This document shows positions 5,245-45,741 of a DNA stretch of 64,000 nucleotides, piece after piece. Made by a program: the position numbers and the translations under genes. This DNA is from a virus. The notes beneath the pieces are model-generated. The model was not told the DNA's origin, ran no database searches, and saw only the letters and a program-made list of their open reading frames with translations. Location of the stretch: positions 126,268 through 190,267 of IMG/VR virus record IMGVR_UViG_3300022902_000004. The stretch is one strand, 5' to 3'. The first letter of the stretch is position 1. Each line of letters starts with the position of its first letter.

Positions 5245-6048
5245 CTAGTTGTCAAAGTTCAAAGATGGATGTTCGTGCCCGTGGCAAATCTTACATAGAA
5301 CGATTCCGGATACATTTTGTGACGTGTGGTAATCAATCACTTTTTCAACGATTATTCTATTTTGTTCTGGTGTCAAGACATGACAATCAACGTCACTGCG
5401 GAACTTCTTGATTATCGCTGCCATTTTTTCTTTATCATGATGGATGTGCAATTTTGTTGTGCTTGAGCATCTTTCACACTTGAATTTTGCTGCGGCGAGC
5501 TTTGGAAATTTCCATTCGCTGTATAGTCGGTTATTTGAATGGCAAAGAGCACCGATTGTTGACGTTCCGCCTTTCCATTGCGGGTGTTCTGATCCTGTCA
5601 AAGATGGAATAATACCGGCCAATCTATTTTTTGACATTATTTTGCTATACTTTTCTCGTTTTTCGGTTGTCCATGTTTTTGCGACCGATCTTCCGGCAAT
5701 GCGGAGTCTTTCATCATCATGCTTCGTTATCCCTTTATTCCAGACAATCATTTCTCCAGATTTCAACATTTCCCGCCGGGAAGCCTGGCTTTTCTTTTGT
5801 GCGTTTTCATTGTGGCCCCAGTTATTTTTGATACGCGCTTGATGACCTGGGCAAAACTTTGAATATCCTTTTGTGATTCCATGGAATTTTGTCTTTGACA
5901 TGCAACCACAAGCACACGTAGGCTGTTTATGCTTGACAACTGCAGCCAGATATATTGCCTCGCTTGAAAGCTTATGCGCTTTTTGTGCATGAATACGCAA
6001 TGAGTTAATTTTTTCAGTTTTGTAATTACAACTTGGACATAAAAACAT
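5245..6048 (-). CDS. freestanding homing endonuclease-like protein (HNH-like with NUMOD3-like repeats and N-terminal C2H2-type zinc finger)
   Basis: N-terminal CPSC...H...H. Repeats WNKGITKHDDE / EHPQWKGG resemble NUMOD3. C-terminal KLHIHHDKE...LTPEQNRII...CKICHGHEH is HNH-like. Inserted between tube gene and tail assembly genes. Confidence 0.5.
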   Translation of the reverse strand: MFLCPSCNYKTEKINSLRIHAQKAHKLSSEAIYLAAVVKHKQPTCACGCMSKTKFHGITKGYSKFCPGHQARIKNNWGHNENAQKKSQASRREMLKSGEMIVWNKGITKHDDERLRIAGRSVAKTWTTEKREKYSKIMSKNRLAGIIPSLTGSEHPQWKGGTSTIGALCHSNNRLYSEWKFPKLAAAKFKCERCSSTTKLHIHHDKEKMAAIIKKFRSDVDCHVLTPEQNRIIVEKVIDYHTSQNVSGIVLCKICHGHEHPSLNFDN

Positions 6049-6117: not shown

Positions 6118-6606
6118 TCAAAATTGAAGCACGGCGTTGTCATACCTGACCGTGAGTGCAATCTCTGATGCGTCTGACGTGCTGTAATCTAGTGCACCGA
6201 AATCAGCCGCTGTCAAGAATGCACCACGGATATCCCACAATTCAACGACTGTACCGACCGGATCAAGCATCTTCAACTGAATGTCGCGCTTGTAGAAGTC
6301 TGCGTAGCCTGCTCGACCTGAGACCGACTCGAAGTGTGTTCGAATCCATTCCATAACCTGCTGAGCGCCGGATGGAGCAATTGGGTCGTGAAGCGTAATC
6401 GATAGTGTTTCGAATGTTGCCTTGCCTGCCACATATCGTTTGTGATTGATATACGGAATTTCCAGCTCTTCAATCGCAATGTTTGGTCGCGAGGCAGTCT
6501 TCACAATGAAGGCGTCGATGCCTTCAACAGCAAGGACCCACCTAAACTGACGTTTTGGCTCAAATTTATTCGGAAGCATGTCCGTTACTGATAGTGTTTC
6601 TGCCAT
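6118..6606 (-). CDS. tail tube protein (T4 gp19-like)
   Basis: 162 aa (T4 gp19 is 163 aa). N-terminal RQFRWVLAVEGI and C-terminal ELWDIRGAF...DYSTSDASEIALTVRYDNAVLQF resemble gp19 C-terminus (LWP..VG..LDW...TFEVTLALDYWE). Lies directly downstream of the sheath genes. Confidence 0.7.
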   Translation of the reverse strand: MAETLSVTDMLPNKFEPKRQFRWVLAVEGIDAFIVKTASRPNIAIEELEIPYINHKRYVAGKATFETLSITLHDPIAPSGAQQVMEWIRTHFESVSGRAGYADFYKRDIQLKMLDPVGTVVELWDIRGAFLTAADFGALDYSTSDASEIALTVRYDNAVLQF

Positions 6607-6660
6607 TTTAATCTCCTAAGACTGAGGCTTCGTTATGTTACAGGTCTAAGTATGGTAAAC

Positions 6661-7179
6661 CTAGAATCCCGACAACACAGCTTCCATTTTTTCTGCCATC
6701 TCGTCGTAATTGCTACTTCCGTTGGCACCCATGTTGACGACCTTTCTGCCGTTTACAATGATCCACCCGTTTCTGCCGTCAATTTTTATTTCTGCATCTG
6801 GGTATCGGCGCTTGAATTTTGCCCTCAACGATTTTGCAGCAGACATTGATGCGGGACCTGCTTGGTTATAGCTTCGTTTGCGGGGCTTTCTGCCTGTCGG
6901 TGAGTAACCATAATTCTGATCGCGACCATAATTTTGTTCATTGACCTGTTTCGAAGGTGCCAGTCGATTCGTCATGATCCCATAAACGTCTCCGTTTCCA
7001 AAATCTACGTCGGCCATGTCACCCATTTTGTGCATTTTCTTGACAGTGCCTTTCCTTGTTTTACCAAAGATCTCCGTTGTAACAATATCGCCTGGTTTTA
7101 CTACCTTTCCTACTGGTTTGGCACGCCATGGTGTGCTTTCTCGAATCAAGTTTCTAATTTGTCGTCGTGTGATTTTCAT
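6661..7179 (-). CDS. MKIT-tag family protein (basic; putative capsid-targeted internal protein)
   Basis: Starts MKITRRQIRNLIRE. 172 aa, Lys/Arg-rich. SD AAGGTGGA. Paralog of the 20.7-25.4 kb cluster. Confidence 0.6.
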   Translation of the reverse strand: MKITRRQIRNLIRESTPWRAKPVGKVVKPGDIVTTEIFGKTRKGTVKKMHKMGDMADVDFGNGDVYGIMTNRLAPSKQVNEQNYGRDQNYGYSPTGRKPRKRSYNQAGPASMSAAKSLRAKFKRRYPDAEIKIDGRNGWIIVNGRKVVNMGANGSSNYDEMAEKMEAVLSGF

Positions 7180-7182
7180 GGG

Positions 7183-7440
7183 TTACATCCACCTTTGTAC
7201 TTTTCTATTGAGTACCTTCATCGCCTGATATTTGATTCCTGGTGCTCTAAAACCGCCGCCGATACGTTCAGCCTCATCGTCGATATACCTGATCAGTGAG
7301 TCAATCTCTCTTTCAACGTTTGCCATAAGGTCGTCGCGCTCCTGGTCCTCATCATCAGAAACCGTGCCGTCCGCGTTCATCTCTGAGAGGATCTTCTCTT
7401 CATTGATAAGTCTTCGTAATTGTTTTTTTGTAATTTTCAC
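7183..7440 (-). CDS. MKIT-tag family protein (acidic; putative capsid-targeted internal protein)
   Basis: GTG start, MKITKKQLRRLINEE. SD AGGAA overlaps the sheath stop codon. 85 aa, acidic C-terminus. Confidence 0.55.
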   Translation of the reverse strand: MKITKKQLRRLINEEKILSEMNADGTVSDDEDQERDDLMANVEREIDSLIRYIDDEAERIGGGFRAPGIKYQAMKVLNRKVQRWM

Positions 7441-7449
7441 GTGCTATTC

Positions 7450-10400
7450 CTAGATATTGTTGCTTACCACGAAGTCAAGCGAGACGAACTCGATTGATTT
7501 TGTTGGCTGTAAGAAGATTTTACCGCGGATGGTGTTATTCTCAATGTCAGCCTGTGTCGTTGTCGACGCGTCAATCTTGACCTTGAATCTATCCAACCCA
7601 CCTTGTGACTGGACGGCTGCCAAGATCGGTTGTACCCTCGCTTCAAATGATGCGATTGTAGATGCCTGGTTTGGCTCAAACAAGAATGTTCGTGCCACAT
7701 CTCTGACCTTTCTACGAATGTCGATTAGCAAACGTCGTACGTTCACACGGTCGAGAGCGCTCTGTGCTGCAAGCAATGTTTTCTGGCCGAATACGGTTAC
7801 TCCGGAATTTGCCTGGACGTCACCGATGATTGGGTTGACATCAGCGCTGTAAAGTGCATCACGATTTGCCTGTAGAAGCTCAACCGTTGGATACAATGCA
7901 CTCTGCAAAGCACCTCGTGAGAAGCCTGCAGGTGCGAACCAAGGATGACCAATTGCATCATTCAGTGCCATGGCACCAAGAACAACAGCCGAAGACGGTG
8001 CTTTCACATTCGTCTTGGTTGCAACATCCTGAATTACCACGTCTGGGAAGTATGCTGCCGCAAACGATGAATCCAAAGCCCTCGATTGGAAAGCGTTGAC
8101 CGTGTTCGTCACGCTGATTACCTGAGCTGATGATGTCACGAACGTGTTAACTTCGTCCTTTTCCTCGATGTCCATGACATACAATGCATCAAATCGTCGT
8201 TCGACTGATTCGATTGCGTAGTCTGTAACAGATGAGTGACGAAGTCCAGGGATTGCCAACAACTGAATGTCAACATCCTGTTTTGCTTCCATCACGTCGA
8301 CTGCTTTTCGCAACGCTGCAACGGTTGGTCCGTTCTTGCCGCCCTGCAAAGTCGAGTCATCCATCTCACGACGAACAGCCGTATCGGTGAATTTCGATTT
8401 CTCAGAGTCAAATACGTTGGTTCCGTCATATCCGCCCTGGAGTGGGAATGTGAACTTCAAGTATTTCTGGCTTGGAATGTGCGCAAAATCCTTAGTTGAA
8501 TCCAAGAATCGAACGTTGGTCTTCGAAGTTCCGTCACGGTCATCAAGCGATGATGCCTGCGTTCCATTTCGGCGATACGAAGCAGCTGCCCACTGTTGTG
8601 GGTCTGGCCTGTCATTCGATCCAGTAATAACCTGCACCCTCTCAAGAGAGAAGAAGTTGTTGTTGAAACGGTCAGCGTCGAAAATCGTTCCGCCCACGTC
8701 AGCAGCTCCAGCATTATCACCGACTAGTGGGTTCTGCCAACTTGTGTGGAATTTCGGGTAATACCTTGTGAAGGATAGCAACGATGCATCCAGTTTTTCA
8801 TTCTTGTTAGGAAGTGAAACGCTTGTCTTCGTTTCGAATTGGATTCCCCATGTGAATGACTGCTGGACGTTTTTCTTTGGTGAAGCACCGGTAGAGATCG
8901 ACTCACGCATTGGGATAGGAGGCTGAACAACCCGTTTGAGCAGATCAGATGAAATGCTGGCTGACATCGAACCTCGCAATGTGGCAAAGCTTCCTGTTAG
9001 GATTGAGCCTGCTGTTCCTGCGATTGTTGTGCCTGACGTAATCAAGTGATGAATTCCACGGAAACCTGTTGGCAATGCCGTTGGGTCCAATCGATCATTC
9101 TTCAAGTCGCTACTCAACGTCACTCGGACGTAGTTTGAAACGCTTGGGTAATCACCTTCGACAACGATCTTCTGGTTTCCAGTTGCTGCTTCGAAGTCGA
9201 AGTATGTTCGCTGGTCACCGATTCGCTTTGCAATGTAGTTGTCAGACGACGGATCCAAACTCAAGCCTCTGAATGATTCCAGAACTGCTGGGTTCAAATC
9301 GTTGTCTGTGAAGCGTCGAATCAACACATCGAAAGTGCCGTACTTATTATTCGCCTTTGATGAAGCCGCGATGTTTTCAATCGTGACCTTGACTTCGCCT
9401 GCACCGATGAGACCGTCAGACAATGTTGTTAGTCTGAACAAATCCTTGTTTGCGCCACCGAATTTCTGTGATACGACGAATGGACTGAATGCCGCCTCAA
9501 ACCTGTCCTCGAAGTTCTCGAAGTTAGGTACACCAACGGTTGTTGCCGATGTTGCAGAACCTACGTCCCGGTTGAGTGTCGAAGTCAAAAGCAAAGCAAC
9601 TGGCTCAAGATTTGTGAACCAGACTGTTGGGTTGATCACGCTTGTACCGGTCGCAACAGCAAGTGCTGGATCGATATCGTAGTGCGTATATAGATAATGC
9701 CCAGCATCTTCGATTTTCAATGGGTCTGTGTTGAGCACGTTTACGAAGTAGTTTGGAACGCTGGGGTCGAATGATGCCGTAACAACATTCTTGTATGTTG
9801 CGTTATTTTTGTGACCGTTGAATAGGAGAACGAACTCCTGCTTCGAGTTACTAACATCGACGCTACCAATGTTTCCGCCAGCATTACCGACACCTGATCC
9901 GCCAAATGATGGATAAGCGGCTTCGTTTGCAGCCGGAGCCATGTTACCAGCAAGGTCAAGTGAGTGACTCAATGCCGGGATAACACCAGAAGGTGCCATT
10001 AGCATACCACGGAGAATCGGAGTTGCGTTGACGTTCTTCTGGATGCCAGCGTCGCTAAGGTATGTTGAACCGTTTGACTCAGACATGATAGCTGCCAGCA
10101 TGTATGAACGGCCGAGCGCTCCACCTGGTAAGTTTTCAGCACCTGAATATGAGTTATCGCCGACGAGCCCGTTTGACTGGACAAGCCTATCACCAACAAC
10201 AAATCCTGCGTTGGTTACCTTGCCCTGGTTGTTACCCGTCGAGAGCCTTGCAGAACCGTCACCGGCACCAAGAACACGAACGAATACACCCGAATCGGCG
10301 TTCCTCAACCATTCACGCATTGCAATCGGTCCAAATTTTGTGCCGTCGCTATTCCCGAACGTTGAAATAAAGTCTTGAAATGTTGCCATAGTCACTGGGA

Positions 10401-10533
10401 CGAAAGCAGGACCTCGTACTGACGTTCCTACAACACCTGCAGGAATTCCAGAGGGAGAAACCTGTGTGGGTCCTGAAAGGTCAATTTCATTCGCCACTAC
10501 GCCCGGACTAACTGGAAAAGTGAATTCTGCCAT
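7450..10533 (-). CDS. contractile tail sheath protein, paralog 1 (gp18-like, ~1027 aa)
   Basis: N-terminus SPGVVANEIDLSG...GVVGTS.RGPAFVPV and C-terminus FGQKTLLAAQSALDRVNVRRLLIDIRRKV match conserved sheath N- and C-domains. Roughly 50% identical to the adjacent paralog in those domains. Confidence 0.85.
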   Translation of the reverse strand: MAEFTFPVSPGVVANEIDLSGPTQVSPSGIPAGVVGTSVRGPAFVPVTMATFQDFISTFGNSDGTKFGPIAMREWLRNADSGVFVRVLGAGDGSARLSTGNNQGKVTNAGFVVGDRLVQSNGLVGDNSYSGAENLPGGALGRSYMLAAIMSESNGSTYLSDAGIQKNVNATPILRGMLMAPSGVIPALSHSLDLAGNMAPAANEAAYPSFGGSGVGNAGGNIGSVDVSNSKQEFVLLFNGHKNNATYKNVVTASFDPSVPNYFVNVLNTDPLKIEDAGHYLYTHYDIDPALAVATGTSVINPTVWFTNLEPVALLLTSTLNRDVGSATSATTVGVPNFENFEDRFEAAFSPFVVSQKFGGANKDLFRLTTLSDGLIGAGEVKVTIENIAASSKANNKYGTFDVLIRRFTDNDLNPAVLESFRGLSLDPSSDNYIAKRIGDQRTYFDFEAATGNQKIVVEGDYPSVSNYVRVTLSSDLKNDRLDPTALPTGFRGIHHLITSGTTIAGTAGSILTGSFATLRGSMSASISSDLLKRVVQPPIPMRESISTGASPKKNVQQSFTWGIQFETKTSVSLPNKNEKLDASLLSFTRYYPKFHTSWQNPLVGDNAGAADVGGTIFDADRFNNNFFSLERVQVITGSNDRPDPQQWAAASYRRNGTQASSLDDRDGTSKTNVRFLDSTKDFAHIPSQKYLKFTFPLQGGYDGTNVFDSEKSKFTDTAVRREMDDSTLQGGKNGPTVAALRKAVDVMEAKQDVDIQLLAIPGLRHSSVTDYAIESVERRFDALYVMDIEEKDEVNTFVTSSAQVISVTNTVNAFQSRALDSSFAAAYFPDVVIQDVATKTNVKAPSSAVVLGAMALNDAIGHPWFAPAGFSRGALQSALYPTVELLQANRDALYSADVNPIIGDVQANSGVTVFGQKTLLAAQSALDRVNVRRLLIDIRRKVRDVARTFLFEPNQASTIASFEARVQPILAAVQSQGGLDRFKVKIDASTTTQADIENNTIRGKIFLQPTKSIEFVSLDFVVSNNI

Positions 10534-10559
10534 TTTATCTCCTACCTTTACGTATCGTC

Positions 10560-13500
10560 TTATTCAAAACTTACGCCATTGTTTGTAATAATGAAGTCAA
10601 CCGAGATGAACTCAATCGCTCGGGTGGGCTTCACTTTGATTTGACCACGAAGTTTGTTCTGGTCAATTTCCGCCTTTGTGTTATTGCTTTCATCACAAAT
10701 AACCTGGAATGCTTCGATTCCCTGTCGGGCTTGAACGTATGTCAGCTCACGGATTGAATCAGCAGAGAACTTCTTTCGAGTTGTCGCATCATTCTGTTCG
10801 AATGCAAGACCTTGCGCGATAGAACGAATCCTTCGCTTTACGTCAATCAACATCCTTCTTGTGTTGATTCTGTTTAGTGCCGTTTGTGCAACCTGTAGCG
10901 TTTTCTGGCCGAAGATTACGTAGCCTGATCGTGGGAACGTTGCGATTGGGTTGATTTTAGCATCGTATAGAGAATCCCTATCCTTTGCTGACAACCTATT
11001 CTCAACGTTTTTCACGAAGCCTAGCGCTCCACGGTTGAAGCCTGCCGGAGCAAACCAAACCTGCTGGACACGGTCGTTGAAACCTAGTGCGCCCATTGCG
11101 GCAACAGACGGTGGAACCTGAACGACCCGGTTATTCACCTTGTCCTCGATTGTAACATCTGGGAAGTATGTCGCGACGTAGTTGTTATCAATCGCACGTG
11201 TTTCGAACTGGTCAATTGTCTTTGTGACATCAGAATTTGCTTCAGAGTCGTCGTACAATCGGTTCGAGCTCTTGTCGAATTCCACAGCATCCATAACATA
11301 CAATGCAAGACCGTATTTCTTGACCGCATCTGAAGCATGGTCGGTTACGAATGGCTCTCTCACACCAGGGATTGCCAACAGGTTGATCCTTGATGAGATT
11401 GGGTTTGTGATGATGTCCACAGCGGTTCGAATCGATGCAACATTGTTGTTGAGTCGTCCGCCGCCCGCCTGGTTAGCAGTTCCGATTAGTGCAAGACCAA
11501 TTCTGTCTGCGGCTCCGGGTGTTGGTTGTGCTTTACCGCCTGTGTCAGATGACAATGCTTTGTCACGGAAGTATCCTTGGTCTTCATCAAGGATGTTCGT
11601 TCCGTCAAATCCACCGTAGAACACGTTTGTGAACTTGTGGTACTCGGTGAAGCGATTGAACAGTGCCGATGATGTTGCGATCAACGACGCCATGGTGATT
11701 CGTCCTGTCCGTGCACCGTCAGTAACGGTGTATGTGGATGGGTTCGGACGACCATTTCGTACGTATGCAGCTTGGAGCATGTGCTCTCGGGCTGTGCCGG
11801 TGACTTGCGTCGTGACATCAGAAAGCTGTGTTGCGGCATTATATAGGGCCACTCGTGCCAAGGTGAATTTGTTATCGTTGAAGAAGTCTGCACCGGAACC
11901 GGTTACCAAACTGTCCATCTTCGAGATACCCTGGAACTTCGTGTATGTTCTAACAAGTGGGTTGATTCCTGCACCTTCATTTGAACGAAGGACCGCATCA
12001 GTGATACCGAGTGTCGAATCGTTGCTTGATGAAACAGGCAGCGGATCAGTTTTGACGCCCCAGTATAGTCGACCGTCAACACGTTCTGTGCTGCCAGGAT
12101 CGCCTAGGAATGTTGGGCTTATACCCTGGACTGCACCCTTCGTCACTTTCACTCGGAAAGGAAGAGGAGGTACGATAGAACCGGTGGTGGCCATAACTGA
12201 TGTGCCTGATGTATGGTAAACACCAAGGCGACGCCTTGTTACATCACCAATTGTTTCTCCGTTGAGACCTGTAAGTGCCGTTGAGCTATCAGTCAGCGTA
12301 TCAGTCGTCTTGATGACCGGAACTCCCCGGAAACCGAATGGCAACGAAGTTTTTGGAACCTTCTCCAACTCAACCTGCTCATTCATTACGATCCGAACAC
12401 GCTGCGAAACGTTCGGGTATTTTCCTGTTACAACTAGGCGGCGCTCATCTGGTGATTCCTGGTCCCAATCAAATCGAACCTTTTTGTCGCCAATGAGGCG
12501 TGCAACGTATCGCTCAGAGTTCGGGCCAAGTGAGCAGTTCGGGTACCTTTCCAGAATTGCTGAATTGCCGTCGCTGTCCTCGAATGATCTGATTTGCACC
12601 TCGAACAAACCGTATGGTTGTTTTTCGTTTGTGCTTGCTCGCAGACCTGCAATCGAAACCTTGAATTTTTCGTTGGCGTAAACACCATCGTCAATTGTTT
12701 CAAAACTGAACAAGTCATACTCAGCATCACCATATGGCTGTGAGATGAAATTCGTTGTTCGTGGAGTCTGGTATCGTGTATCATATCGACCGAATAGCTG
12801 CATAAACCCGACCGGAGTTCCGGCGGATGTGCTTTTGTTCGCTGAACCTGAAACCAACGCGACAGTTGGTACAACACTTGAAATCACAGGAGCAAGTGCA
12901 TGCTCGACTGCGAAATCGAGGTAAAGCAGATGCTCTTCCTCTTGGAACTTGAGTGGATCTGTGTTCAGGACCTTGCCGATGTAGTTCGCGTCGTGGGGAT
13001 CGAGTGAGGCGGTCAGAATTTTGATTCCGTCATAGCCTTCATCATACGCCCAGTCTTTTCCAGACGAAGAGCTAAGAATCAGTTTGAAATATTTGTTTTG
13101 TGTCAATGGGCTGGATGGAATTGAACCGACGAGTGCCGAGTTGTACCCGGGCGCAGACTGATCAGCGTAGGTTCCTGTATTGTCTAGCGCCATCATTCTT
13201 GTGCCAGTGGCGAGCAAAACTGCGCCCCGGACGAGGTTCATAGACGATGCATTGTTGATGCTGCTATTGTCAGTAAACATCGGGTAGCCATTTGTTTCAT
13301 CGTTTGCAACAGCATCATGCCGCGCGACGATGAACTGGACAAGCCCTTGACTGCCAGGCAAATCAGTATTCAACGAATCGCTGCCTGTAATTCTAAATCC
13401 TGCATTCTTGACAATTCCTGACCCGCGGGTGTTTGAAATATCGGTCGCAGTCTCATTTGCACCGGCACCGAGTAATCTCACATATGTAAGTGCTGTCCTA

Positions 13501-13727
13501 TTGTCAAGCCACTGCTTAACAGCATATGGACCAAACCGCTTTGCGTTGAGTGTTCCAAATTTTGTTTCGAAATCAGCGAAAGATCCGACAGTAACCGGAA
13601 CGAATGCCGGTCCTTTCTCAGATGTGCCGACAACACCGGCTGGCACACCCGTTGGCGCAACCTGCTGACCTGATAGGTCTATTTCCTGGTCGAAAAATCC
13701 AGGAGATCGAAATGTTTGCTCAGCCAT
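10560..13727 (-). CDS. contractile tail sheath protein, paralog 2 (gp18-like, ~1055 aa)
   Basis: N-terminus SPGFFDQEIDLSG...GVVGTSEKGPAFVPV, C-terminus FGQKTLQVAQTALNRINTRRMLIDVKRRIR. SD AAGGAGAAAAC. Collinear homology with paralog 1 throughout. Confidence 0.85.
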   Translation of the reverse strand: MAEQTFRSPGFFDQEIDLSGQQVAPTGVPAGVVGTSEKGPAFVPVTVGSFADFETKFGTLNAKRFGPYAVKQWLDNRTALTYVRLLGAGANETATDISNTRGSGIVKNAGFRITGSDSLNTDLPGSQGLVQFIVARHDAVANDETNGYPMFTDNSSINNASSMNLVRGAVLLATGTRMMALDNTGTYADQSAPGYNSALVGSIPSSPLTQNKYFKLILSSSSGKDWAYDEGYDGIKILTASLDPHDANYIGKVLNTDPLKFQEEEHLLYLDFAVEHALAPVISSVVPTVALVSGSANKSTSAGTPVGFMQLFGRYDTRYQTPRTTNFISQPYGDAEYDLFSFETIDDGVYANEKFKVSIAGLRASTNEKQPYGLFEVQIRSFEDSDGNSAILERYPNCSLGPNSERYVARLIGDKKVRFDWDQESPDERRLVVTGKYPNVSQRVRIVMNEQVELEKVPKTSLPFGFRGVPVIKTTDTLTDSSTALTGLNGETIGDVTRRRLGVYHTSGTSVMATTGSIVPPLPFRVKVTKGAVQGISPTFLGDPGSTERVDGRLYWGVKTDPLPVSSSNDSTLGITDAVLRSNEGAGINPLVRTYTKFQGISKMDSLVTGSGADFFNDNKFTLARVALYNAATQLSDVTTQVTGTAREHMLQAAYVRNGRPNPSTYTVTDGARTGRITMASLIATSSALFNRFTEYHKFTNVFYGGFDGTNILDEDQGYFRDKALSSDTGGKAQPTPGAADRIGLALIGTANQAGGGRLNNNVASIRTAVDIITNPISSRINLLAIPGVREPFVTDHASDAVKKYGLALYVMDAVEFDKSSNRLYDDSEANSDVTKTIDQFETRAIDNNYVATYFPDVTIEDKVNNRVVQVPPSVAAMGALGFNDRVQQVWFAPAGFNRGALGFVKNVENRLSAKDRDSLYDAKINPIATFPRSGYVIFGQKTLQVAQTALNRINTRRMLIDVKRRIRSIAQGLAFEQNDATTRKKFSADSIRELTYVQARQGIEAFQVICDESNNTKAEIDQNKLRGQIKVKPTRAIEFISVDFIITNNGVSFE

Positions 13728-13808
13728 GTTTTCTCCTTAGCTTCAAATGTTCAAGAAGCGTCCATTGTAAGTATCCTCGAGAATGCAAAAATCAAATATT
13801 TCATGCAA

Positions 13809-15086
13809 CTAAAAAATCTCGCGATAAATAGTTTCGCCACTTCTATTTGTCCTCGTTTTGACAACATTGTACCGGCGGGTTGTTTTCCCGGTGAACGGAT
13901 CAACAAATGACTCAACAGTACGCACGTTCACATCGTTCACGGCACCGCCGATCATCGCAGATTCATCTCTGTCATGTGACTTTGCATTCAGGTTTTTCGA
14001 ATTATTGTACGTCACCGACTCTTGGCCGGCAACAGCCCCACCTGGCAATGGCGCAAACAATTGCCGCGAGTCATCCAGCACATAGTCACCGGGATCACCA
14101 CTTGGTGAACCAACAACAACATCATCAACGATCTGTACGGATGTCATGTCCATTTCAAATGATATTTGAGGCTGCGACAGAATCGACCGAAGACGATTCG
14201 GGGCGCCGGGGTATGTTTCCCCTAGCAAAAAACCTGGCACTTTCATTGTGAACGACGTGCGAACAATCCGTTCGTCATCTGTGAAATCATCAAAATTGTT
14301 TGCTGGATCGAATGATGAATCCATGTAGGCGACGTATGAATATCCCTTTGCTGATTCAATTCTGAACGTCCTTTGCGCATAATTTTGTGCATTTGTCATG
14401 ATTGCCATTACAATGTCATTCATCTGTATCACATATTGCGCCCAAATTGTAATATCATATGTTGCAGTGATAAAAGTAGGAGGTGGCATCTCAATCACTT
14501 CAAAAATATTGTTGTCTAGTTTCGGGGTGAGCAGGTTTCCAGATCTTACGTTGTCTGATAGCTCGTATTCGCCCCGGCGAGAAGCAACACGACCCGGGCT
14601 CGCGCCTTTTAGTGGAGCTTCTGTTCCATCGTTCATGAATGCTTCGCCGGTTGCCAAATCATCAGAGTTCTTGAGACCTGTCTTGTTTAGTAAACGCTGA
14701 TACCTGGGATCTTTTTTCGATAGGCGTTTCTTAATGATATGCGGAACTGTGGTATTTGATGCCATACCCATTTCATTATCTTGCGTTACGTTTGTACGCA
14801 TTATTGAAATGATGGGCAATATCAGGGCGCCAGCTTTGTCGCGGAGGGGCTTCTTTCTGGCTATTAATGCAAACCTCTCGCCAGATGCAAACACAATCGG
14901 TATTTTTTTCGGTTCTTTTTTATATGAATATGTTAGTGGAAGATCTTTATCGAACAAATTGAACAACGCACGATCGATGTCCTCAATCGTGCTGCTTGGG
15001 AGCTCTAGGTTGATGCCTGACGTATTGTCGCCGGCTGCAGGTGGATTACCACCTCTGTTGGCTTCGAGTTGTTCGCGTGTTGACAT
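13809..15086 (-). CDS. hypothetical structural protein (neck/tail-completion module position upstream of sheath)
   Basis: 425-aa ORF immediately upstream of the sheath genes, tightly packed in the same operon. No diagnostic motifs. Confidence 0.5.
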   Translation of the reverse strand: MSTREQLEANRGGNPPAAGDNTSGINLELPSSTIEDIDRALFNLFDKDLPLTYSYKKEPKKIPIVFASGERFALIARKKPLRDKAGALILPIISIMRTNVTQDNEMGMASNTTVPHIIKKRLSKKDPRYQRLLNKTGLKNSDDLATGEAFMNDGTEAPLKGASPGRVASRRGEYELSDNVRSGNLLTPKLDNNIFEVIEMPPPTFITATYDITIWAQYVIQMNDIVMAIMTNAQNYAQRTFRIESAKGYSYVAYMDSSFDPANNFDDFTDDERIVRTSFTMKVPGFLLGETYPGAPNRLRSILSQPQISFEMDMTSVQIVDDVVVGSPSGDPGDYVLDDSRQLFAPLPGGAVAGQESVTYNNSKNLNAKSHDRDESAMIGGAVNDVNVRTVESFVDPFTGKTTRRYNVVKTRTNRSGETIYREIF

Positions 15087-25464: not shown

Positions 25465-26460
25465 TTAGAATCGAATCACACAAAATTCCTTATCGTTCTG
25501 AAAGCTCCAATCGATTGCCGCTTGATATTTCAATGGGTCGTTGTCATTTTCCTGACCTTTGACTTCGTAAAGCATTGAACCTGAGAGTGATAGGAAGTCT
25601 GGGACATAGGTTCGCTCGACGCCGTTTGGGTCTTTGTATGGGATGCGGATGTCGTGTTTCTTGGTGACTGGCTCGCCCCGAGATACACATTCGTCCAGGA
25701 AACGGGACTCCCACCCGGAGTGCATGTATTCTTCTTGCTGTGTGAACGGGTTGAACTTCCACTCGGTCTTGAATGGCGCCTGCGGCCCGATGACGCCGTC
25801 CTCTAGCAACTGGATGGCACGTTCGCTGTATACTTTTTTCATTTCTGGATTGTTTTGCCACCAACGTTTTGATGCAACTGATTTCTTCTTCTTTACATCC
25901 TGCCTTGCGGCGGTTTTATGGCCGGCAAGTCTTTGCTTCTCACGGTACTCGTCAGTTCTTAGCACCTCAACCCTTTTATCATAATCCTCGTCCCACCTTT
26001 TTTGAGCCGCCTTACTGTAACGCTCTTTTTGCTCAGATGTTCTTACCTTTCCAAAGTTTGGACTGTCGGCTCCTCGTTTTCCATACATTCCATTATTTTT
26101 GCCTTTGTTACTGTGTCCACGAAGATATTCAGGAAACCCGCCCTTCGCCCATTTGAGTTTCGTATTGCAGCCGCACTTGCATACCGGCCAGATGTTGTTA
26201 TGTTCTGTACGAACTTGATATGCCGGCCATTCAATTTTATGCTCTTTTCTTACGTGACGAGCAAGAACATTGTTTGAATTTGCAACAAGCTCGTCGCAAA
26301 TCTTACACTTTATTGTGAACTCGACGACAGGTTTTGCATAAATCTCTTTTGCGATATCCTTATGCCAATAACCAACATGAGCACCGACGGATCTCGGCGT
26401 ATTTCTCAACATCTTGTCGCAGTACTTGCACTTTACTTTTTCTATTTGTTTTTCCATCAT
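25465..26460 (-). CDS. freestanding homing endonuclease-like protein (NUMOD3-like repeats + C-terminal PD-(D/E)xK nuclease motif)
   Basis: Probable start MMEKQIEKVKCKYC at 26460. NUMOD3-like MYGKRGADSPNFGKVRTSEQKERYSK. C-terminal YVPDF...YEVKG is PD-(D/E)xK-like. Inserted between MCP gene and MKIT cluster. Confidence 0.55.
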   Translation of the reverse strand: MMEKQIEKVKCKYCDKMLRNTPRSVGAHVGYWHKDIAKEIYAKPVVEFTIKCKICDELVANSNNVLARHVRKEHKIEWPAYQVRTEHNNIWPVCKCGCNTKLKWAKGGFPEYLRGHSNKGKNNGMYGKRGADSPNFGKVRTSEQKERYSKAAQKRWDEDYDKRVEVLRTDEYREKQRLAGHKTAARQDVKKKKSVASKRWWQNNPEMKKVYSERAIQLLEDGVIGPQAPFKTEWKFNPFTQQEEYMHSGWESRFLDECVSRGEPVTKKHDIRIPYKDPNGVERTYVPDFLSLSGSMLYEVKGQENDNDPLKYQAAIDWSFQNDKEFCVIRF

Positions 26461-26508
26461 ACAATAAATATATAGGAAATGAATGAATTGTATAGGAAAA
26501 AGATGGTT

Positions 26509-26546
26509 AAAAAGGAAAAGGCGCCCTTTGTGGGGGCGCCTTTCCA
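26509..26546 (-). terminator. intrinsic terminator downstream of major capsid gene (GC hairpin GGCGCCC/GGGCGCC + U-tract), palindromic and potentially bidirectional
   Basis: Minus-strand RNA reads GGCGCCCCCACAAAGGGCGCC UUUUCCUUUUU. Preceded by a second AU-rich 8-bp hairpin (26549..26568). Confidence 0.7.
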
Positions 26547-26574
26547 ATCATCTAGTGGTAACTAGATGGTCAAC

Positions 26575-28473
26575 CTAGATAACGTTCATGTCAAGACATG
26601 TCACAGTTCCGTAGAAATCGTTACGGACCATTTTCTTACCGTACCGAGTCATCACGCCCTTTCGAGGAGTGAAGTCTTCCGGTGCGAAGATGGTAGGAGT
26701 CACGATCAGCGGGACGTAAGGAGCGTAGACGTATCCTGTCTCCAGGTAGCTTCCGCCCTTGTATCCAACCAGAATCTGGTTGCGTGGGAAGTAAGGGTCC
26801 TTGTAAACCGAGAATCGATTCGACAGGGTACCAACCTTCTCAGCACCGATAACCATCGGGCCAACCTGTCCGTCAGCGTCAAGCGAGAAGCTTGGCTTGT
26901 ACAGGATTGAAGACTCGAAGATTGTTGCAACATCCGGGCCGACAACGATGAAGTTAGCCGAACCACGTAGCGTCTTACGATGAATCTCGTTAGCAACGTC
27001 GATGATGGTCTCGATAAGAGTCTCGTACCACTCTCGAACTGTACCGGTGAATGCCGGGCCAGGTGTCAACGAGTTTGTACGGTTGACTTCGATACCAGTC
27101 TGCTTGTTGAGGAACTTACCTGGGCTACGTGACCAGTAGAAGCGCGCAGCTCCAGCCTGTGTCAGCAAGTCATTCAAGATCTCTCGGTCAAGCTCCATTG
27201 CGATCTGCTCGGACAGGATGTGTGTCAGCTCAACCTCAGCGTCAAGGCTGTGGTAAGCGTTCAGGTCCTGTGCCATTTCTGGCGACCAGCGGGCACGCAA
27301 CTTACGAGTCTCAGCCACAACAGCGATTGACTCGATCTTGATGTCGATTTCTGGGATTGCAGGTGATGGGTCGACCGCGAAGTCAGACTCGAACGAAGGA
27401 ATGACCAACGTATCACCAGTGTTTGCAGCCGAATCGAGTGCAGCAGCCAATGGCTTAGCAAGCACGGTTGCAGGAGCAGCGAGGCCGCCCTGGTTAGCAC
27501 CAGACACAATCATCAAGAGCGCTGCGTTAGCATCGCCTGCCTTGACCAAGCCGTTAGGCGTGAAGTTTGTGCCGTCCCAGGTTCCCATCTGGTTCAATCG
27601 ACGGATGTTAGCTGTGCTACCACCCTGGATTGCGTTACCATTGGTGTCGTTTCCAACAACCTTGTATGGGGCCACTGGAGCCAACGAGAAGTCCTTAGAC
27701 AACGTAAGGTCAGCATCACCGAAGAGCGTACCACCTGAAGCCAACGAAACCACGAGTGCGTGATATACAGCAGAACCTGTAAGAGCACCCGGTCCGCCAC
27801 CAACTGGTGCCGCGTTGTTCTCGATTGCGTTTGTGATTTGCGGGTCGTACTGAAGCAACTTGCCGTCAGAACCTGTTGCAGCCAATGTTTTAGCATTGCT
27901 GAACACTGTTCCGGAACCGAAAGCACCTGATGCCGACAATGAAACTGCAGCAGTCACACCGTAAACTCGAGAGTAACCCGAGCCAGCAAGGTCGTACTGA
28001 CCACCAACGCCCTGCGAACCAGACTGAACGCCTTTACCCGCTGGGCTGTTGTAAATTGACGAACCTGAAGAATAAGGTGTCGCCGCGCCGACCGAACCTG
28101 CCATGTTTCCACCGTAGGTGTAGTCCATGTAGAAGAGCAGTCCGGAAGGAAGGCTCATTGGCTGGATCGAAACAAGGTCGTTCGCAATCAATCCACCGAA
28201 GACTCGGCGAACCAATGGGAATGCGATGTTTGTGAAACCACGAAGGTCACCAGACGAGGTTCCGTTAGCGCCACCGGTCGAAATCGATGATGCTTCCTTG
28301 ATAACCTGGCCAGCCTGACTTTCGAGCAAGCGCGCCATGTTCTCTCGTTTCGTGCCGTCAAGGCCGCGAAGAAGACCAGTACGGTTCCACTTCTCGATGA
28401 GTAGTTTGTTTTGCGAGCCGACGTGACGTTTTTGAATCCCCTCGGTTAGCATTTCTAGATTAAATGTAGACAT
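26575..28473 (-). CDS. major capsid protein (T4 gp23-like)
   Basis: 632 aa. IAFPLVRRVFGGLIANDLVSIQPMSLPSGLLF aligns with gp23 MVRRAIPNLIAFDICGVQPMNSPTGQVF. C-terminus YFPRNQILVGYKGG...GYVYAPYVPL...TRYG aligns with gp23 DYFTVGYKGP...GIYYAPYVAL...TRYG. Putative LLE|S processing site near residue 51. SD AAGGAG. Confidence 0.9.
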   Translation of the reverse strand: MSTFNLEMLTEGIQKRHVGSQNKLLIEKWNRTGLLRGLDGTKRENMARLLESQAGQVIKEASSISTGGANGTSSGDLRGFTNIAFPLVRRVFGGLIANDLVSIQPMSLPSGLLFYMDYTYGGNMAGSVGAATPYSSGSSIYNSPAGKGVQSGSQGVGGQYDLAGSGYSRVYGVTAAVSLSASGAFGSGTVFSNAKTLAATGSDGKLLQYDPQITNAIENNAAPVGGGPGALTGSAVYHALVVSLASGGTLFGDADLTLSKDFSLAPVAPYKVVGNDTNGNAIQGGSTANIRRLNQMGTWDGTNFTPNGLVKAGDANAALLMIVSGANQGGLAAPATVLAKPLAAALDSAANTGDTLVIPSFESDFAVDPSPAIPEIDIKIESIAVVAETRKLRARWSPEMAQDLNAYHSLDAEVELTHILSEQIAMELDREILNDLLTQAGAARFYWSRSPGKFLNKQTGIEVNRTNSLTPGPAFTGTVREWYETLIETIIDVANEIHRKTLRGSANFIVVGPDVATIFESSILYKPSFSLDADGQVGPMVIGAEKVGTLSNRFSVYKDPYFPRNQILVGYKGGSYLETGYVYAPYVPLIVTPTIFAPEDFTPRKGVMTRYGKKMVRNDFYGTVTCLDMNVI

Positions 28474-42100: not shown

Positions 42101-42352
42101 GTGGACCTCTGCTATTTCAGCCAAACCGTTGAACCACCATGTCAAATTTGAAATCAGTTCAGGGGAAATGCCTTGGGTTTTTGAGTGAACGATGTCACCG
42201 GCGATGAAAATAATGTCTGGTTTCAAAGTATGCAACTTTGAAAATGCGTCTTCAAACGCTGTGCGATATTCATCGTGCCTAGAAAGAGAGCGCCAGTGTA
42301 TATCGCTTAAATGACAGATCTTAGTAATGTGACACCTCGAGGTTATTTTCAA
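39200..42352 (-). CDS. fused Mre11-Rad50 (SbcD-SbcC; T4 gp47-gp46 equivalent) recombination nuclease/ATPase
   Basis: N-terminal calcineurin-like phosphoesterase motifs (HLSDIHW, GDIVH, GNHD, TFHG). Then Rad50 Walker A FGKNRSGKSSL, long coiled coils, C-terminal signature/Walker B LIIDEGFGALD and ILIISHVDTV. Confidence 0.8.
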   Translation of the reverse strand: MKITSRCHITKICHLSDIHWRSLSRHDEYRTAFEDAFSKLHTLKPDIIFIAGDIVHSKTQGISPELISNLTWWFNGLAEIAEVHVTLGNHDGLILNPDREDAISPILAAIDNPRIKLYKKSGTYPMNDECNICVFSCFDEAGWPDVKPEEGKINIATFHGVVHNSETDAAWALESDVNLKFFEGYDFVMLGDIHKQQILDKAGRIRFSGSAIQQNYAETPGKGFLMWDIKSKDDFDVKHVEIKHEHPFVTLDYDDDLDKLQSEMEDYPSSAHVRVKIQSAATQADMSQIRAAIKSVSGPTEIVFKREVDAATLELSDELLDETIKLDSFDAVNNLIKEFYANAKLDDETINEMAKTLSGVWKSAKLADNSTSGRWSLRRMEFDNIFGYGEGNIVNFESASGITGIFGKNRSGKSSLCGAATYALFNGTDRGAMKNMHIVNARKGYCVAKALISKKGKNYLVERQTVKKTTKKGDHHAVTHLNLFESDETGTPLKDISEEQRRETEKILRGLVGTLDDFLLTTLASQGDINRFVDQGSATRKSILAKFLRLDILDTLFELVKQDLSIAKKMLKSAPEQQFDAKIVDKTAKVKARIAERTAESDSLGKITRILNNINSALDSQTKEMYVQTEIDDQAEKIRKANEDRDEFMETMSVASLERDVINATITEMKTKIQDIDFAKLKKKKVAIVDSEHGIIVATGEIETKSSKLRADKRAVKKLSDVPCADTFPQCKYIISAKKAEKNMLEKKDDLLASKKRVAALKSSLKKLLKENVDEKLAQKQEHDEKLFLLAQSKSKLSMKILGLESRISNVERDLAVDNSMLSRMKINLCSTESAKERKILVAKKKLATEKLQEAKLRIQTLSERIGLLTSEVKRLRTDKIQFEKNNQQVQILTLLGKALSRNGIPLQIVKRKLPVINVEIANILQGITGFTVELTVDDSAGMDIILNYGDSKRVIECCSGMEKMMSSLAIRTALVRVSSLPKADVLIIDEGFGALDATNVEACTTLLRSLTKTFRLILIISHVDTVKDVVDNIIEISTTKGHDAQVKFL

Positions 42353-43130
42353 AAATCATAACATACGTCCAATTCTTGTTATTACAAAAACCTATTGCAG
42401 CTCTTTTTTTTGCATCTACTTTTTCTGGGTCCCTTATAAACCCTTTGATTTCTTCAATGCATGTACTTCCGGAACAGCTTTCTACTAGTATATCCGGTAT
42501 GTATATATGTTCGGATCCGTCATGACTATATTTTATTTTTATGCCGTGCGACGTTGTAAACTTAACAACTTCATCACATGATTCAAGAAATCGCAATCTG
42601 CGCAGTTCGTATGACGACATATAATACATTCGTTCACCAGCTTTCTTCGAATAAAACCAGCCTCTTGCTGTGTTTTTCATTTGACCGGATTTTATAAAAA
42701 TCTTCTCAATTATTTCATCAAATTCTTTTTCGCTCTTTTTTGACCAATGGTTTTCTTTTATTAGTTGCCTTGTTTTATTCGAAACTGTTTTCCCGGTGCA
42801 GGCACTGCTATGCTTGTCTTTTCTGTCGTCAGTCCAGTACTCTTTTGCGTGTTTTTTTGTCCACCTAAACGCCTTACCGGTTTCATTGATTTGTTTCATG
42901 ACCCGACTGCCATTACTCGAAATAGCTTTTCGAATTTTCTTAGTTTCTTCTTTTGGTTTTTTTGACCAGTGATTTTCTTTAATTTTTTTGCTCACTTCTT
43001 TCTTCTTTTCACTTGTCATGACATCACCATACAATCGCCGATATTCGGCAACCCCCATATTATGTTTAAACTTCAAGTGAGAAGGAGAAATAATTCCAAA
43101 TTTTTTGTGGCATAGCTGACATTCTATCAT
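42321..43130 (-). CDS. freestanding homing endonuclease-like protein (zinc finger + ENHWSKK repeats + PD-(D/E)xK-like C-domain)
   Basis: Probable start MIECQLCHKKFG at 43130 (SD GAGGT). C-terminal YIPDILVE...CIEEIKG. 3' end overlaps the sbcCD-like start. Inserted between primase and Mre11-Rad50 genes. Confidence 0.5.
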   Translation of the reverse strand: MIECQLCHKKFGIISPSHLKFKHNMGVAEYRRLYGDVMTSEKKKEVSKKIKENHWSKKPKEETKKIRKAISSNGSRVMKQINETGKAFRWTKKHAKEYWTDDRKDKHSSACTGKTVSNKTRQLIKENHWSKKSEKEFDEIIEKIFIKSGQMKNTARGWFYSKKAGERMYYMSSYELRRLRFLESCDEVVKFTTSHGIKIKYSHDGSEHIYIPDILVESCSGSTCIEEIKGFIRDPEKVDAKKRAAIGFCNNKNWTYVMIFENNLEVSHY

Positions 43131-43185
43131 TTTAGATACCTCGCAGATATAAGTATCTTGACATCGGCCATGTGGCAAATTTTTG

Positions 43186-44145
43186 TCATAGTATAGAACC
43201 GCTCTTGATTTTTGAAATCTTGTGATTGAGAAAAGAAACTGGAGTCCACCGTGCCGTCGTCGCCAAAATGTCACGAACATCGCTTTTCGTTCTGCTGCCT
43301 AGGTCGTTACCCTTGATCGTTAAGTTATAAACGGAACAACCGGCAAGAGATAAACGGCGACATACGTCATGAATTCTGCTTTCTGCATCTTCATCAAACG
43401 CCACGATAACCGTACTTTCATGTTGCTTCAACCTCATAAATAAATTACTGCCTGATGCTAGCGAAGAACCTAACACAGGAACTGTATTCTCCGGACATTT
43501 TACTGCATCGAACACACCTTCCACAAGAATGATCGGTTCATCCCAGTTGATGTCGAACTCGTTAAAAATGACCGTTCGTTTCGGCACGTCAGCATTTTTG
43601 TATTTGAATTTTGTTTCATCGATGCACCTCGCCGTGTAGTAGTTGAGCTGGCCTGAGGCTGTAAATGACGGGAAGATTGCCTTGCGGCGAAACTTGAACT
43701 CATTTGACACACATATGCGCCATCTATACATATCCATTTTCGTCAGGCCACGGGCTTTTAGGTATCTTTTTACATCATTTGCGTCGGGATCATTTTTCGC
43801 GGACATTAACAAAACTGAATCTTCCGGCAGTTCCGGCGGCAGAATGATCTCTTCGAGAGCCTGCTGGTCTGTATATGACCGGTCTTCATGAAATAATTGT
43901 GCGCATCGAGGGGCATAATTTTTAGCGAACTTGCGAAACAAAAAGTTGATGTTTTTGCCAGAGGTGCCGCATACCCAACAATGATACCAGCCGGTTGCCA
44001 GCTCAATATATAGCTTTTTCTTATTTTTTCGGCCATCTTTGCAACTTGGACAGGAAACGTGGAAGTTTACCTTCCCAGTTTCCATGTAACCAGATCCAAA
44101 CGCAGCTTCAAATAAAGCAGTCTTTTTTGATATTTCTAAGCCCAC
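43186..44145 (-). CDS. DNA primase (DnaG/T4 gp61-like)
   Basis: Zinc-binding CPSCKDGRKNKKKLYIE...WYHCWVCGTSGKNINFL. Toprim motifs ILVEGVFDA and VIVAFDEDAES. Confidence 0.8.
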   Translation of the reverse strand: MGLEISKKTALFEAAFGSGYMETGKVNFHVSCPSCKDGRKNKKKLYIELATGWYHCWVCGTSGKNINFLFRKFAKNYAPRCAQLFHEDRSYTDQQALEEIILPPELPEDSVLLMSAKNDPDANDVKRYLKARGLTKMDMYRWRICVSNEFKFRRKAIFPSFTASGQLNYYTARCIDETKFKYKNADVPKRTVIFNEFDINWDEPIILVEGVFDAVKCPENTVPVLGSSLASGSNLFMRLKQHESTVIVAFDEDAESRIHDVCRRLSLAGCSVYNLTIKGNDLGSRTKSDVRDILATTARWTPVSFLNHKISKIKSGSIL

Positions 44146-44742: not shown

Positions 44743-45741
44743 TTATGACATAATTTTTAGTTCGCGTAAATCGTGTTCTGTTATGAATCGATATTCGTTG
44801 ATCCCTTCAGACTCACAGAATTTTCGGGATGCTAATGCTTTTTGTTGAACTTTTTCTGTGTTTATAAACATTGACGGTTTCACTTCCCATATTTGTCTTG
44901 TTCCGTCACTAAATTCAACCAAAAAATCAGGAATATACCACCTTTTTTCCCCATTGTAACGATATGGAATTTTAATTGTTTCATATCCATATGATGCTAC
45001 ATTATCATCATTGTCGAGAAAGTTCATTGTTATTAGTTCCCAACCGGAACGATAGAACATTTTCTTGCCTGTTTTTGGTGAAACGTGTTCACCGGCTTGG
45101 CGATTTTTTCCGTACGGCTTTATTTTGCCAGCTAACATCATTTCTGCACGTTTTAGCGACATAATTGCCTTAGATTCAACAGTATGGCACTTTCCATACA
45201 TCGGATTGTTTTTTCCCTTCGAGCGATTTGAATTACGTTGCTCGGCGCTCATTTTCTTTTTTGATTCTTCGCTATGCTTTCGACCTGTCCATGGGTGAAC
45301 ATATGTCCCTTCTTTTTGCTTTTTACGAATTGTACGACTAATATTTGCACGGGCTTCTGGCGTCATACTTTTCTCATGCCAAATCGCATAAGTTTCTGGG
45401 TTTTTTGATTTCCATGATCCGTAACATTGAGGTTTGCAAAAGCTTCCATGAATTTCATTTGGGGCAGCCTGAGACGTCCATCGCTCAATTAGTTTTCCGC
45501 AATCTCTGCAGTTTGCTTTTGTTATTGCTGCACCGTGACCGCCGAAGCCGTCAGACTTACGATGACCGTATGTACATTTTTTTGAACATCGATGTATTTT
45601 TGCTCTTACGTATGCAGTTCTATATTTTCCAGCACGCTCAAACGTCGAACCACAAATATCACATTTGATGACTACAACCGTTGGTGGATTACCAGGAGCG
45701 CCCGGTCTTTTTCTTGGAAGTTGTTTTATTTCTATGATCAT
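44743..45741 (-). CDS. freestanding homing endonuclease-like protein (NUMOD3-like repeats + PD-(D/E)xK)
   Basis: HPWTGRKHSEESKKKMSAEQR and NNPMYGKCHTVESKAIMS are NUMOD3-like. C-terminal WYIPDFLVEF...IWEVKP. Paralogous architecture to 25465..26460. Confidence 0.55.
   Translation of the reverse strand: MIIEIKQLPRKRPGAPGNPPTVVVIKCDICGSTFERAGKYRTAYVRAKIHRCSKKCTYGHRKSDGFGGHGAAITKANCRDCGKLIERWTSQAAPNEIHGSFCKPQCYGSWKSKNPETYAIWHEKSMTPEARANISRTIRKKQKEGTYVHPWTGRKHSEESKKKMSAEQRNSNRSKGKNNPMYGKCHTVESKAIMSLKRAEMMLAGKIKPYGKNRQAGEHVSPKTGKKMFYRSGWELITMNFLDNDDNVASYGYETIKIPYRYNGEKRWYIPDFLVEFSDGTRQIWEVKPSMFINTEKVQQKALASRKFCESEGINEYRFITEHDLRELKIMS

Follow-up and report, generated by a model that had tools for sequence, protein, structure and literature searches.

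Two sheath genes side by side

The window analysed here is a 64,000-nucleotide (nt) stretch of viral DNA, positions 126,268 to 190,267 of IMG/VR record IMGVR_UViG_3300022902_000004, and its point of interest is a pair of genes for contractile tail sheath proteins, here called ShB and ShA, that lie head to tail on the minus strand, 26 nt apart. Phage contractile sheaths are textbook homopolymers of one protein. Why, then, are there two genes here? Both are supported as sheath genes by their open reading frames (ORFs), by Pfam, PHROG and PDB-profile matches, and by AlphaFold2 (AF2) models searched with Foldseek:

10560-13727, minus strand: ShB, the upstream sheath paralog, 1055 amino acids (aa), ATG start
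7450-10533, minus strand: ShA, the downstream sheath paralog, 1027 aa, ATG start

The original prediction, a model's note made from the letters of the window alone, had reported two adjacent ORFs with sheath motifs and homology along their whole length. The coordinates were confirmed, as was the presence in both of the N-terminal motif SPG..EIDLSG..GVVGTS..GPAFVPV and the C-terminal motif FGQKTL..AQ.AL.R.N.RR.LID, and BLASTP aligns residues 1-1026 of ShA with residues 1-1050 of ShB at 34% identity (E 2e-167), which bears out the homology. Its estimate of about 50% identity in the conserved parts was right about the conservation and somewhat high as a figure, as identity by window is 71% in the first 50 residues and 36-48% over the C-terminal ~330 residues; it is only 12-28% in several middle windows. 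When the two families of orthologs are compared, 22 alignment columns are conserved inside each and different between them. The size put forward, about 1.6 times that of T4 gp18 (659 aa), agrees with the computed ratios of 1.56 for ShA and 1.60 for ShB. A single gene that has been split or frameshifted is ruled out, each ORF on its own running the whole length of a sheath protein, N-terminal arm to C-terminal strand.

Family membership is consistent across several kinds of search. The Pfam family PF17482 (Phage_sheath_1C; cut-off 26.9 bits) scores 32.4 for ShA and 44.3 for ShB, both above the gathering score. For PF04984 (Phage_sheath_1, the subtilisin-like sheath domain; cut-off 31.4) the scores are 37.9 for ShA and 22.2 for ShB, so that the window's ShB itself falls below the cut-off, while many ShB orthologs carry a precomputed match to it. 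PHROG 23 'tail sheath' is matched by ShA at 1e-57 and by ShB at 5e-59. Profiles built from 96 ShA orthologs and 112 ShB orthologs have T4 gp18 as their best solved relative in a PDB profile search (ShA profile positions 743-1030 with gp18 355-650, E 1e-35; ShB profile positions 861-1053 with gp18 459-651, E 6e-42), and weaker matches to Pvc2/3/4, Afp2/3/4 and sheaths of other contractile injection systems. The AF2 models (pLDDT 84.3 and pTM 0.80 for ShA; 86.4 and 0.86 for ShB) have as their top Foldseek matches in the PDB the sheaths of Klebsiella KP1 and T4 gp18 (E 6e-14 and 7e-15; probability 1.00). Because the Pfam, PHROG, PDB-profile and Foldseek matches to T4 gp18 concur, both ShA and ShB are, by sequence and predicted fold, full-length gp18-type contractile tail sheath proteins.

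The region in which the two are most alike is the N-terminal arm, though it is predicted to be disordered in the monomers, with pLDDT below 50 at residues 1-20 of ShA and 1-22 of ShB. Conservation of a segment that the monomer models leave disordered is the signature expected of an inter-subunit exchange strand in a 'handshake' mesh, and the arm may be such a strand. Its motif, SPG....E[IK]DLS, is kept in ShA and ShB and is also present in single-copy sheaths; judged from aligned sequences the arm is ancestral and has been retained by both. At the other extreme, the gp18-like ends flank a middle region of ~650 residues, whose gp18 counterpart, domains I and II, has ~260. That the extra mass consists of insertion domains, as had been presumed, agrees with this comparison, and those domains are probably exposed. 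As to what they resemble, Pfam matched only the two sheath domains and whole-chain Foldseek searches were dominated by the sheath core. Neither size nor duplication is unprecedented, with sheath proteins of 900-1500 aa already known: PHROG sheath families span 915-1135 positions, a 1492-aa sheath is present in BFVD, and sheaths of 1248-1283 aa have been tabulated (PMC9230969).

The pair among relatives

In a search of 5.8 billion metagenomic proteins ShA and ShB each brought up a series of orthologs of its own, at 53-97% identity, and many ShA/ShB pairs were on contigs of the same length. Tara Oceans proteins, from samples such as TARA_042_DCM, belong to the same two-sheath clade, and the 157 IMG/VR loci that were fetched and whose ORFs were classified come from many different samples. 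Two neighbouring genes of the window serve to delimit the sheath module in these loci:

13809-15086, minus strand: gp15-like gene, putative sheath terminator/stabiliser (Pfam T4-gp15_tss, E 9e-4, below the cut-off)
6118-6606, minus strand: tail tube gene, gp19-like (PHROG 4542 'tail tube', 3.6e-30; Pfam Phage_T4_gp19, 4.6e-5, below the cut-off)

The pair was counted at the 79 loci in which ShA is full-length and is preceded by 3.4 kb or more of sequence. An adjacent full-length ShB is present in 76, one more has ShB 675 nt away, and the remaining two are one and the same dispersed extra copy. Of the 55 loci bracketed by the gp15-like and tube genes, 42 contain two sheath genes and 13 three; a single sheath gene is found in none. 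The order gp15-like, ShB, ShA, tube is conserved in the relatives: every locus that extends far enough has an ortholog of the gp15-like gene ahead of ShB, the tube gene comes after the last of the sheath genes, and ShB is single-copy throughout and the first sheath gene after gp15-like in all. Copy number in related phages, which the original prediction had singled out for checking, is thus two, three or four per locus in the uncultured clade and one in the nearest cultured relatives; Mel-JY01, the immuto phages, RM378, HTVC008M and cyanophage S-8S56 have a single annotated sheath gene each.

Two circumstances had been named that would undo the case, an assembly artefact and inactivating lesions. 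Neither applies: an artefact is contradicted by copies that are only 34% identical and by an arrangement that recurs on 77 independent contigs, and neither copy is lesioned, the ratio of nonsynonymous to synonymous substitution (dN/dS) being ~0.03 for each.

One old duplication and several younger ones

Neighbour-joining trees with bootstrap, calculated on corrected p-distances, separate a ShB clade (bootstrap 100) from a super-clade of ShA with all the extra copies (98). The ShA and ShB clades hold largely matching sub-clades, and all single-copy sheaths (Mel-JY01, immuto, RM378, HTVC008M, S-8S56) fall outside both. Because of the separate clades with their largely matching sub-clades, we read this as a single ancient duplication in the clade ancestor, after which ShA and ShB would have diverged together.

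Unexpectedly, expansion continued, and the later duplications derive always from ShA; ShB was never duplicated. One sub-lineage has the order gp15, ShB, ShA, A2, tube, and its A2 clade (bootstrap 100) is sister to its own ShA clade (98). Elsewhere a further paralog, C, stands after the tube gene. The loci with three tandem sheath genes include the following, and about 15 further loci share the arrangement:

L110, 4273-13700: three tandem sheath genes
L111, 3600-13045: three tandem sheath genes
L128, 6881-16329: three tandem sheath genes
L147, 6878-16342: three tandem sheath genes
L156, 6874-16345: three tandem sheath genes

Loci with a C paralog after the tube gene are:

L094, 6611-19958: C paralog after the tube
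L089, 1-13327: C paralog after the tube
L072, 2152-5427: C paralog after the tube
L025, 4238-6997: C paralog after the tube
L093, 1695-4475: C paralog after the tube

L094 has four sheath genes (ShB, ShA, A2 and the post-tube C), its A and A2 coming from a separate recent duplication at 80% identity. A lone C-like sheath gene away from the tail module was met in L099 (9887-13174, 1096 aa, ShA/C-like) and, as the same gene, in L100 and L101; in the ~9.9 kb upstream and 3.2 kb downstream available for L099 no gp15-like, ShB or tube gene was detected, and the lone gene may be an extra copy that lies dispersed in another part of these genomes.

The extra copies behave differently from the pair. 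In three-copy lineages the mean pairwise identity is 81% for B, 77% for A and 54% for A2, so that by this measure ShA and ShB stay slow while A2 drifts, and in A2, C and the solo copies the N-termini are remodelled and the arm motif is lost. Length varies between 985 and 1597 aa for ShA among relatives and between 998 and 1165 aa for ShB; the longest ShA ortholog, of 1597 aa, is at L075 3589-8379, and other lineages have 1105-1196 aa. Large insertions, as the compared lengths have it, gather preferentially in ShA.

The uncultured phage LR756508.1 has two sheath-like ORFs of ~824 aa (7299-9788 and 10797-13277 of locus L002), ~1 kb apart and after a gp15-like gene. They sit on long branches, do not form a pair in the trees and do not group clearly with either ShA or ShB; they may represent another independent duplication or a long-branch artefact; they were left unused in dating the duplication.

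Constraint and signals of expression

Compared with L014, a 97%-identical relative, dN/dS is 0.029 for ShB, 0.033 for ShA, 0.023 for the tube gene and 0.016 for the gp15-like gene. Over 76 loci the identities of ShA and ShB orthologs to those of the window are correlated at r = 0.97, with means of 52.2% and 52.1%. On these comparisons purifying selection acts on the two genes with equal strength, and neither diverges faster than the other.

The synonymous distance (dS) to L014 declines along the adjacent genes of 6118-15086, from 1.65 for gp15-like through 0.79 for ShB and 0.51 for ShA to 0.47 for the tube gene, a gradient that may mark a recombination boundary close to where the sheath module begins.

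Each sheath gene has its own Shine-Dalgarno (SD) sequence:

13728-13747, minus strand: ShB Shine-Dalgarno AAGGAG, 5 nt before the ATG
10534-10559, minus strand: ShB-ShA spacer of 26 nt, with the ShA Shine-Dalgarno TAGGAG 5 nt before the ATG

The former is conserved in 30 of 30 relatives and the latter, counting at least a GGAG/AGGA core, in 29; the median ShB-ShA gap in these 30 is 34 nt. Promoter and terminator scans of the region stayed at chance level, with no convincing terminator in the ShB-ShA spacer, and the T4 late-promoter consensus TATAAATA has two sites where 0.95 are expected, which is no enrichment, neither of them near the sheath genes. Given the short gap and the lack of a convincing terminator, ShB and ShA are probably co-transcribed, the transcription units being deduced from spacing only. 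In codon adaptation to the major capsid protein (MCP), tube and portal genes ShA ranks 3rd and ShB 6th of 41 genes, with ShB at 0.709 as against 0.616 for the gp15-like gene, 0.651 for the adaptor-like gene and 0.658 for the hub.

The phage and its neighbourhood of genes

What kind of phage is this? The window also codes for a gp23-like MCP, a gp20-like portal, a large terminase, a primase, an SbcC-like nuclease and a baseplate hub. The hallmarks of T4-like phages (gp23, gp20, gp17, gp19 and gp15-/gp13-like neck genes) are all present, with matches to PHROG 138, 213, 2, 4542 and 211. Because of the MCP, portal, large terminase, primase and SbcC-like nuclease, the window DNA is, judged by gene content, that of a T4-like phage. 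The closest MCPs are those of LR756508, the immuto phages, Mel-JY01 and RM378, at 39-49% identity, and the nearest relatives by capsid and sheath are the uncultured 484-kb LR756508, the Flavobacterium immuto phages, Microcystis phage Mel-JY01 and Rhodothermus phage RM378. Near-identical DNA was sought among GenBank phages and none was found.

A single-protein scan of GTDB genomes for a clue to the host gave no match. A profile scan of GTDB brought up three contigs of metagenome-assembled genomes with ShB orthologs at 48-51% identity (DQKQ01000203.1, PBIO01000013.1 and NHDW01000006.1, our L167-L169; one contig is of 305,838 nt), their assigned taxa, Flavobacteriales, Halobacteriovorax and Methylococcaceae TMED69, being unrelated to one another. 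Probably they are phage contigs placed in the wrong bins, and for that reason no host is inferred from them.

On the minus strand the order of genes is adaptor-like, a 221-aa ORF, gp15-like, ShB, ShA, two small ORFs and the gp19-like tube. The small ORFs (7183-7440, 85 aa, and 6661-7179, 172 aa, both minus strand) share an N-terminal motif (MKITKKQLRRLI / MKITRRQIRNLI). A ShA-to-tube gap comparable to that of the window is also found in the 97%-identical L014; because in most relatives the tube gene starts 30-60 nt after the last sheath gene, the small ORFs look like inserted accessory genes. Four endonuclease-like ORFs, all minus strand, lie amid structural and replication genes (5245-6048, 25465-26547, 42321-43280 and 44743-45741). 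Three of them match PHROG 15427 'endonuclease'; the ORF at 5245-6048 has no PHROG match and shows by eye a C2H2-like zinc finger and an HNH-like C-terminus. GC content at third codon positions is unusually low (0.26-0.35) in three of the four, and all four are probably homing endonucleases. The gp23-like MCP (26575-28473, minus strand) is unusually long at 632 aa; PHROG 138 matches it in two stretches, the best covering only residues 368-615, and tblastn matches too come in two pieces, a pattern that suggests an inserted or additional domain.

Other systems with more than one sheath protein

The closest precedent among phages is PaBG, whose gp76 and gp213 are sheath paralogs, 38% identical, that arose by gene duplication (Kurochkina et al. 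2018, Virology 515:46, as cited in PMC7412058); both are virion proteins, bands 4 and 5 in Table 1 of the citing paper (PMC7412058). The likeness is that of a tailed phage with two duplicated sheath paralogs of similar size, 38% identical there and 34% here. In PaBG, however, the proteins are of 528 and 547 aa, about half the size, and are encoded ~117 kb apart, whereas ShA and ShB, of 1027 and 1055 aa, are in tandem. Further, PaBG is annotated with two adjacent tube genes, gp74 and gp75 (KF147891.1 45661-46731; L087 1662-2732), whereas the window has one gp19-like tube gene beside the sheath pair. PaBG is a jumbo phage related to phiRSL1; the window is from a T4-like phage whose relatives reach three to four paralogs. 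In the neighbour-joining tree gp76 and gp213, used jointly as outgroup, are far from all T4-like sheaths, and from sequence we infer that the ShA/ShB duplication was independent of that of PaBG. Otherwise PMC9230969 mentions in a brief aside that two sheath copies occur in some phage genomes, and this aside with PaBG and its relatives makes up the phage exceptions found in the literature; the Goslar and Erwinia jumbo-phage papers describe no sheath paralogs.

Outside phages, paralog sets of the Afp2/3/4 type are carried by extracellular contractile injection systems (eCIS; PMC6899500). The original prediction had turned to these as precedent, which they are, though not the only one, given the two sheaths of PaBG. 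What is alike is the presence of two to four adjacent sheath paralogs with a common C-terminal handshake core and differing extra domains, and the Afp and Pvc sets offer two precedents for deployment, a trunk of mixed composition, or rings with a special role close to the baseplate. According to the PDB tables, Afp2 and Afp3 both come under the AFP trunk entry 6rbn. What differs is that eCIS are capsid-less devices with sheaths of 354-451 aa, whereas the window is from a phage with capsid, portal and terminase and has gp18-type multi-domain sheaths, which resemble eCIS sheaths in sequence only over the last ~200 residues (E 1e-8 to 1e-17). No gene resembling Afp15 or Afp16 was seen among those window ORFs that were compared with Pfam and PHROGs. 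An identification of the locus as an eCIS was therefore rejected: it has the tandem paralogs of one, and the MCP, portal and large terminase do not belong to a capsid-less device.

T4 gp18 and the other single-copy T4-like sheaths supply the best sequence and fold matches, the same order of gp15-like, sheath and tube, and the SPG...E.DLS arm. These sheaths (T4, Mel-JY01, immuto, RM378, HTVC008M, cyanophages) are encoded by one gene each and have 659-877 aa; the window has two genes, each with ~390 residues more than T4 gp18 in the equivalent of its domains I and II. A two-component phage sheath is thus rare and has precedent, and ShA/ShB belongs to neither the PaBG lineage nor the eCIS. It stands apart in its tandem genes, in gp18-type proteins of twice the size, in being fixed clade-wide and in reaching three to four paralogs in some branches.

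A probable two-component sheath, and the alternatives

The reading we favour, at a probability of roughly 0.8, is that ShB and ShA would both be functional subunits of one contractile sheath. It builds on the homology and fold of the proteins, on a pair that is old and universal and whose members are equally constrained, and on the expression signals; co-assembly, and any placing of either protein in trunk or rings, is what we infer from them. Together they point to abundant, canonical lattice subunits of one sheath. A gp18-type gene would have been duplicated in tandem, once and long ago, in the clade ancestor, both copies being retained since, co-transcribed and each with a strong ribosome-binding site of its own for translation. 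ShA and ShB would keep the inner lattice-forming core, that is the N-terminal exchange arm and the equivalents of gp18 domains III and IV, and this shared core could weave the two into one 'handshake' mesh around the gp19-like tube, spanning from the baseplate to the gp15-like terminator, while the mutually divergent middles of ~650 residues would make two different outer surfaces. The form of this that we prefer has A and B as co-equal partners in the helical trunk, by analogy with Afp2/Afp3 and with what is inferred for PaBG gp76/gp213, and for co-polymerisation along the trunk the odds are put at a little short of even. The stricter proposal of an obligate A/B hetero-polymer throughout the clade, in alternating or A3B3 rings, with A2 and C as position-coded terminal rings, is more tentative. 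The faster-evolving A2 and C of some relatives may be position-specialised or accessory copies.

Several considerations weigh against a sheath built jointly from both. The clade is known from genes alone. The trees are not maximum likelihood, and the node joining A and B to the exclusion of the outgroups has a bootstrap of only 66-68%. Co-transcription and similar SD sites are no proof of similar stoichiometry; indeed the genes for Afp2/3/4 and Pvc2/3/4 are adjacent yet their copy numbers differ. The codon reference set was of our own choosing, and arguments from codon usage are weak in phages. A variable number of paralogs (two, three or four) fits position-specific rings better than a strict co-polymer, and as ShA duplicates and expands and ShB never does, the two proteins are not equivalent.

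Could one of them, still within a two-component sheath, serve only at particular positions? ShA, most plausibly, would then be the trunk, and ShB, encoded beside the gp15-like terminator, would make a single ring or a small number of rings at the neck or baseplate end in the manner of Pvc3/Pvc4 and Afp4. In the PDB tables Pvc3 and Pvc4 come only under the baseplate entry 6j0n, with Pvc2 also under the sheath entries 6j0b and 6j0c, and Afp4 is listed only for the baseplate-associated 6rao and 6rgl. The range of two to four paralogs among relatives suits modular roles of that kind, and ShB, narrow in its length range and unduplicated beside a ShA that duplicates and reaches 1597 aa, argues for non-equivalent functions. 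The 22 columns conserved within each family and differing between them also speak for this reading. On the other hand ShB has the same substitution rate and dN/dS as ShA, an equally strong SD, and a codon adaptation (0.709) that clearly exceeds the values for three low-copy tail genes, gp15-like, adaptor-like and hub. On the evidence of the alignments both have the arm motif from their ancestor, and their outer regions are equally large, unlike the case of Afp3, Afp4, Pvc3 and Pvc4, with 410-451 aa against 354-355 for Afp2 and Pvc2. On this evidence, all of it indirect, specialisation by position is a serious contender, albeit a doubtful one.

That the two might be redundant or alternative sheaths, either protein sufficing and the second being a spare, an anti-defence decoy or a source of heterogeneity, is improbable. 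All core polymerisation elements are retained in both, and the repeated ShA duplications speak for a locus that tolerates changes in copy number; redundancy predicts frequent loss, however, and simple redundancy is unlikely because loss is never seen, one-sheath loci being absent from the 55 bracketed by gp15-like and tube genes. The pair also persists in orthologs down to ~40% identity with dN/dS of ~0.03 in both, and the fixed family-specific differences between ShA and ShB are likewise at odds with interchangeable proteins. An origin in a strain assembly chimera, or in an eCIS or tailocin locus rather than a phage, has next to no chance of being right. It could be entertained insofar as tandem sheath paralogs are typical of eCIS (PMC6899500) and the window is metagenomic, with no close phage in GenBank. 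Yet read collapse or strain chimerism cannot produce copies only 34% identical; the same gene order recurs on contigs from many independent samples; and the MCP, portal, terminase, primase and SbcC-like nuclease are there. Low identity, recurrence and these phage hallmark genes refute chimera, eCIS and tailocin alike.

What the pair means for T4-like phages

Far from being the oddity of a single isolate, the two-gene state is fixed and under strong selection throughout a deep and widespread clade of uncultured T4-like phages, and clade-wide fixation together with expansions to three or four genes should make it notable to specialists. Annotation and sheath-based phylogenies, in which one gene per genome is usually assumed, are affected. 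If both proteins are in the tail, they would offer a natural system for how a helical contractile lattice takes up non-identical subunits, for asking what very large outer sheath domains do, and a test of whether phages and eCIS have converged on an architecture based on paralogs. Should the hetero-polymer reading in particular be true, there would be in a phage sheath an eCIS-like division of labour that evolved independently of both PaBG and the eCIS.

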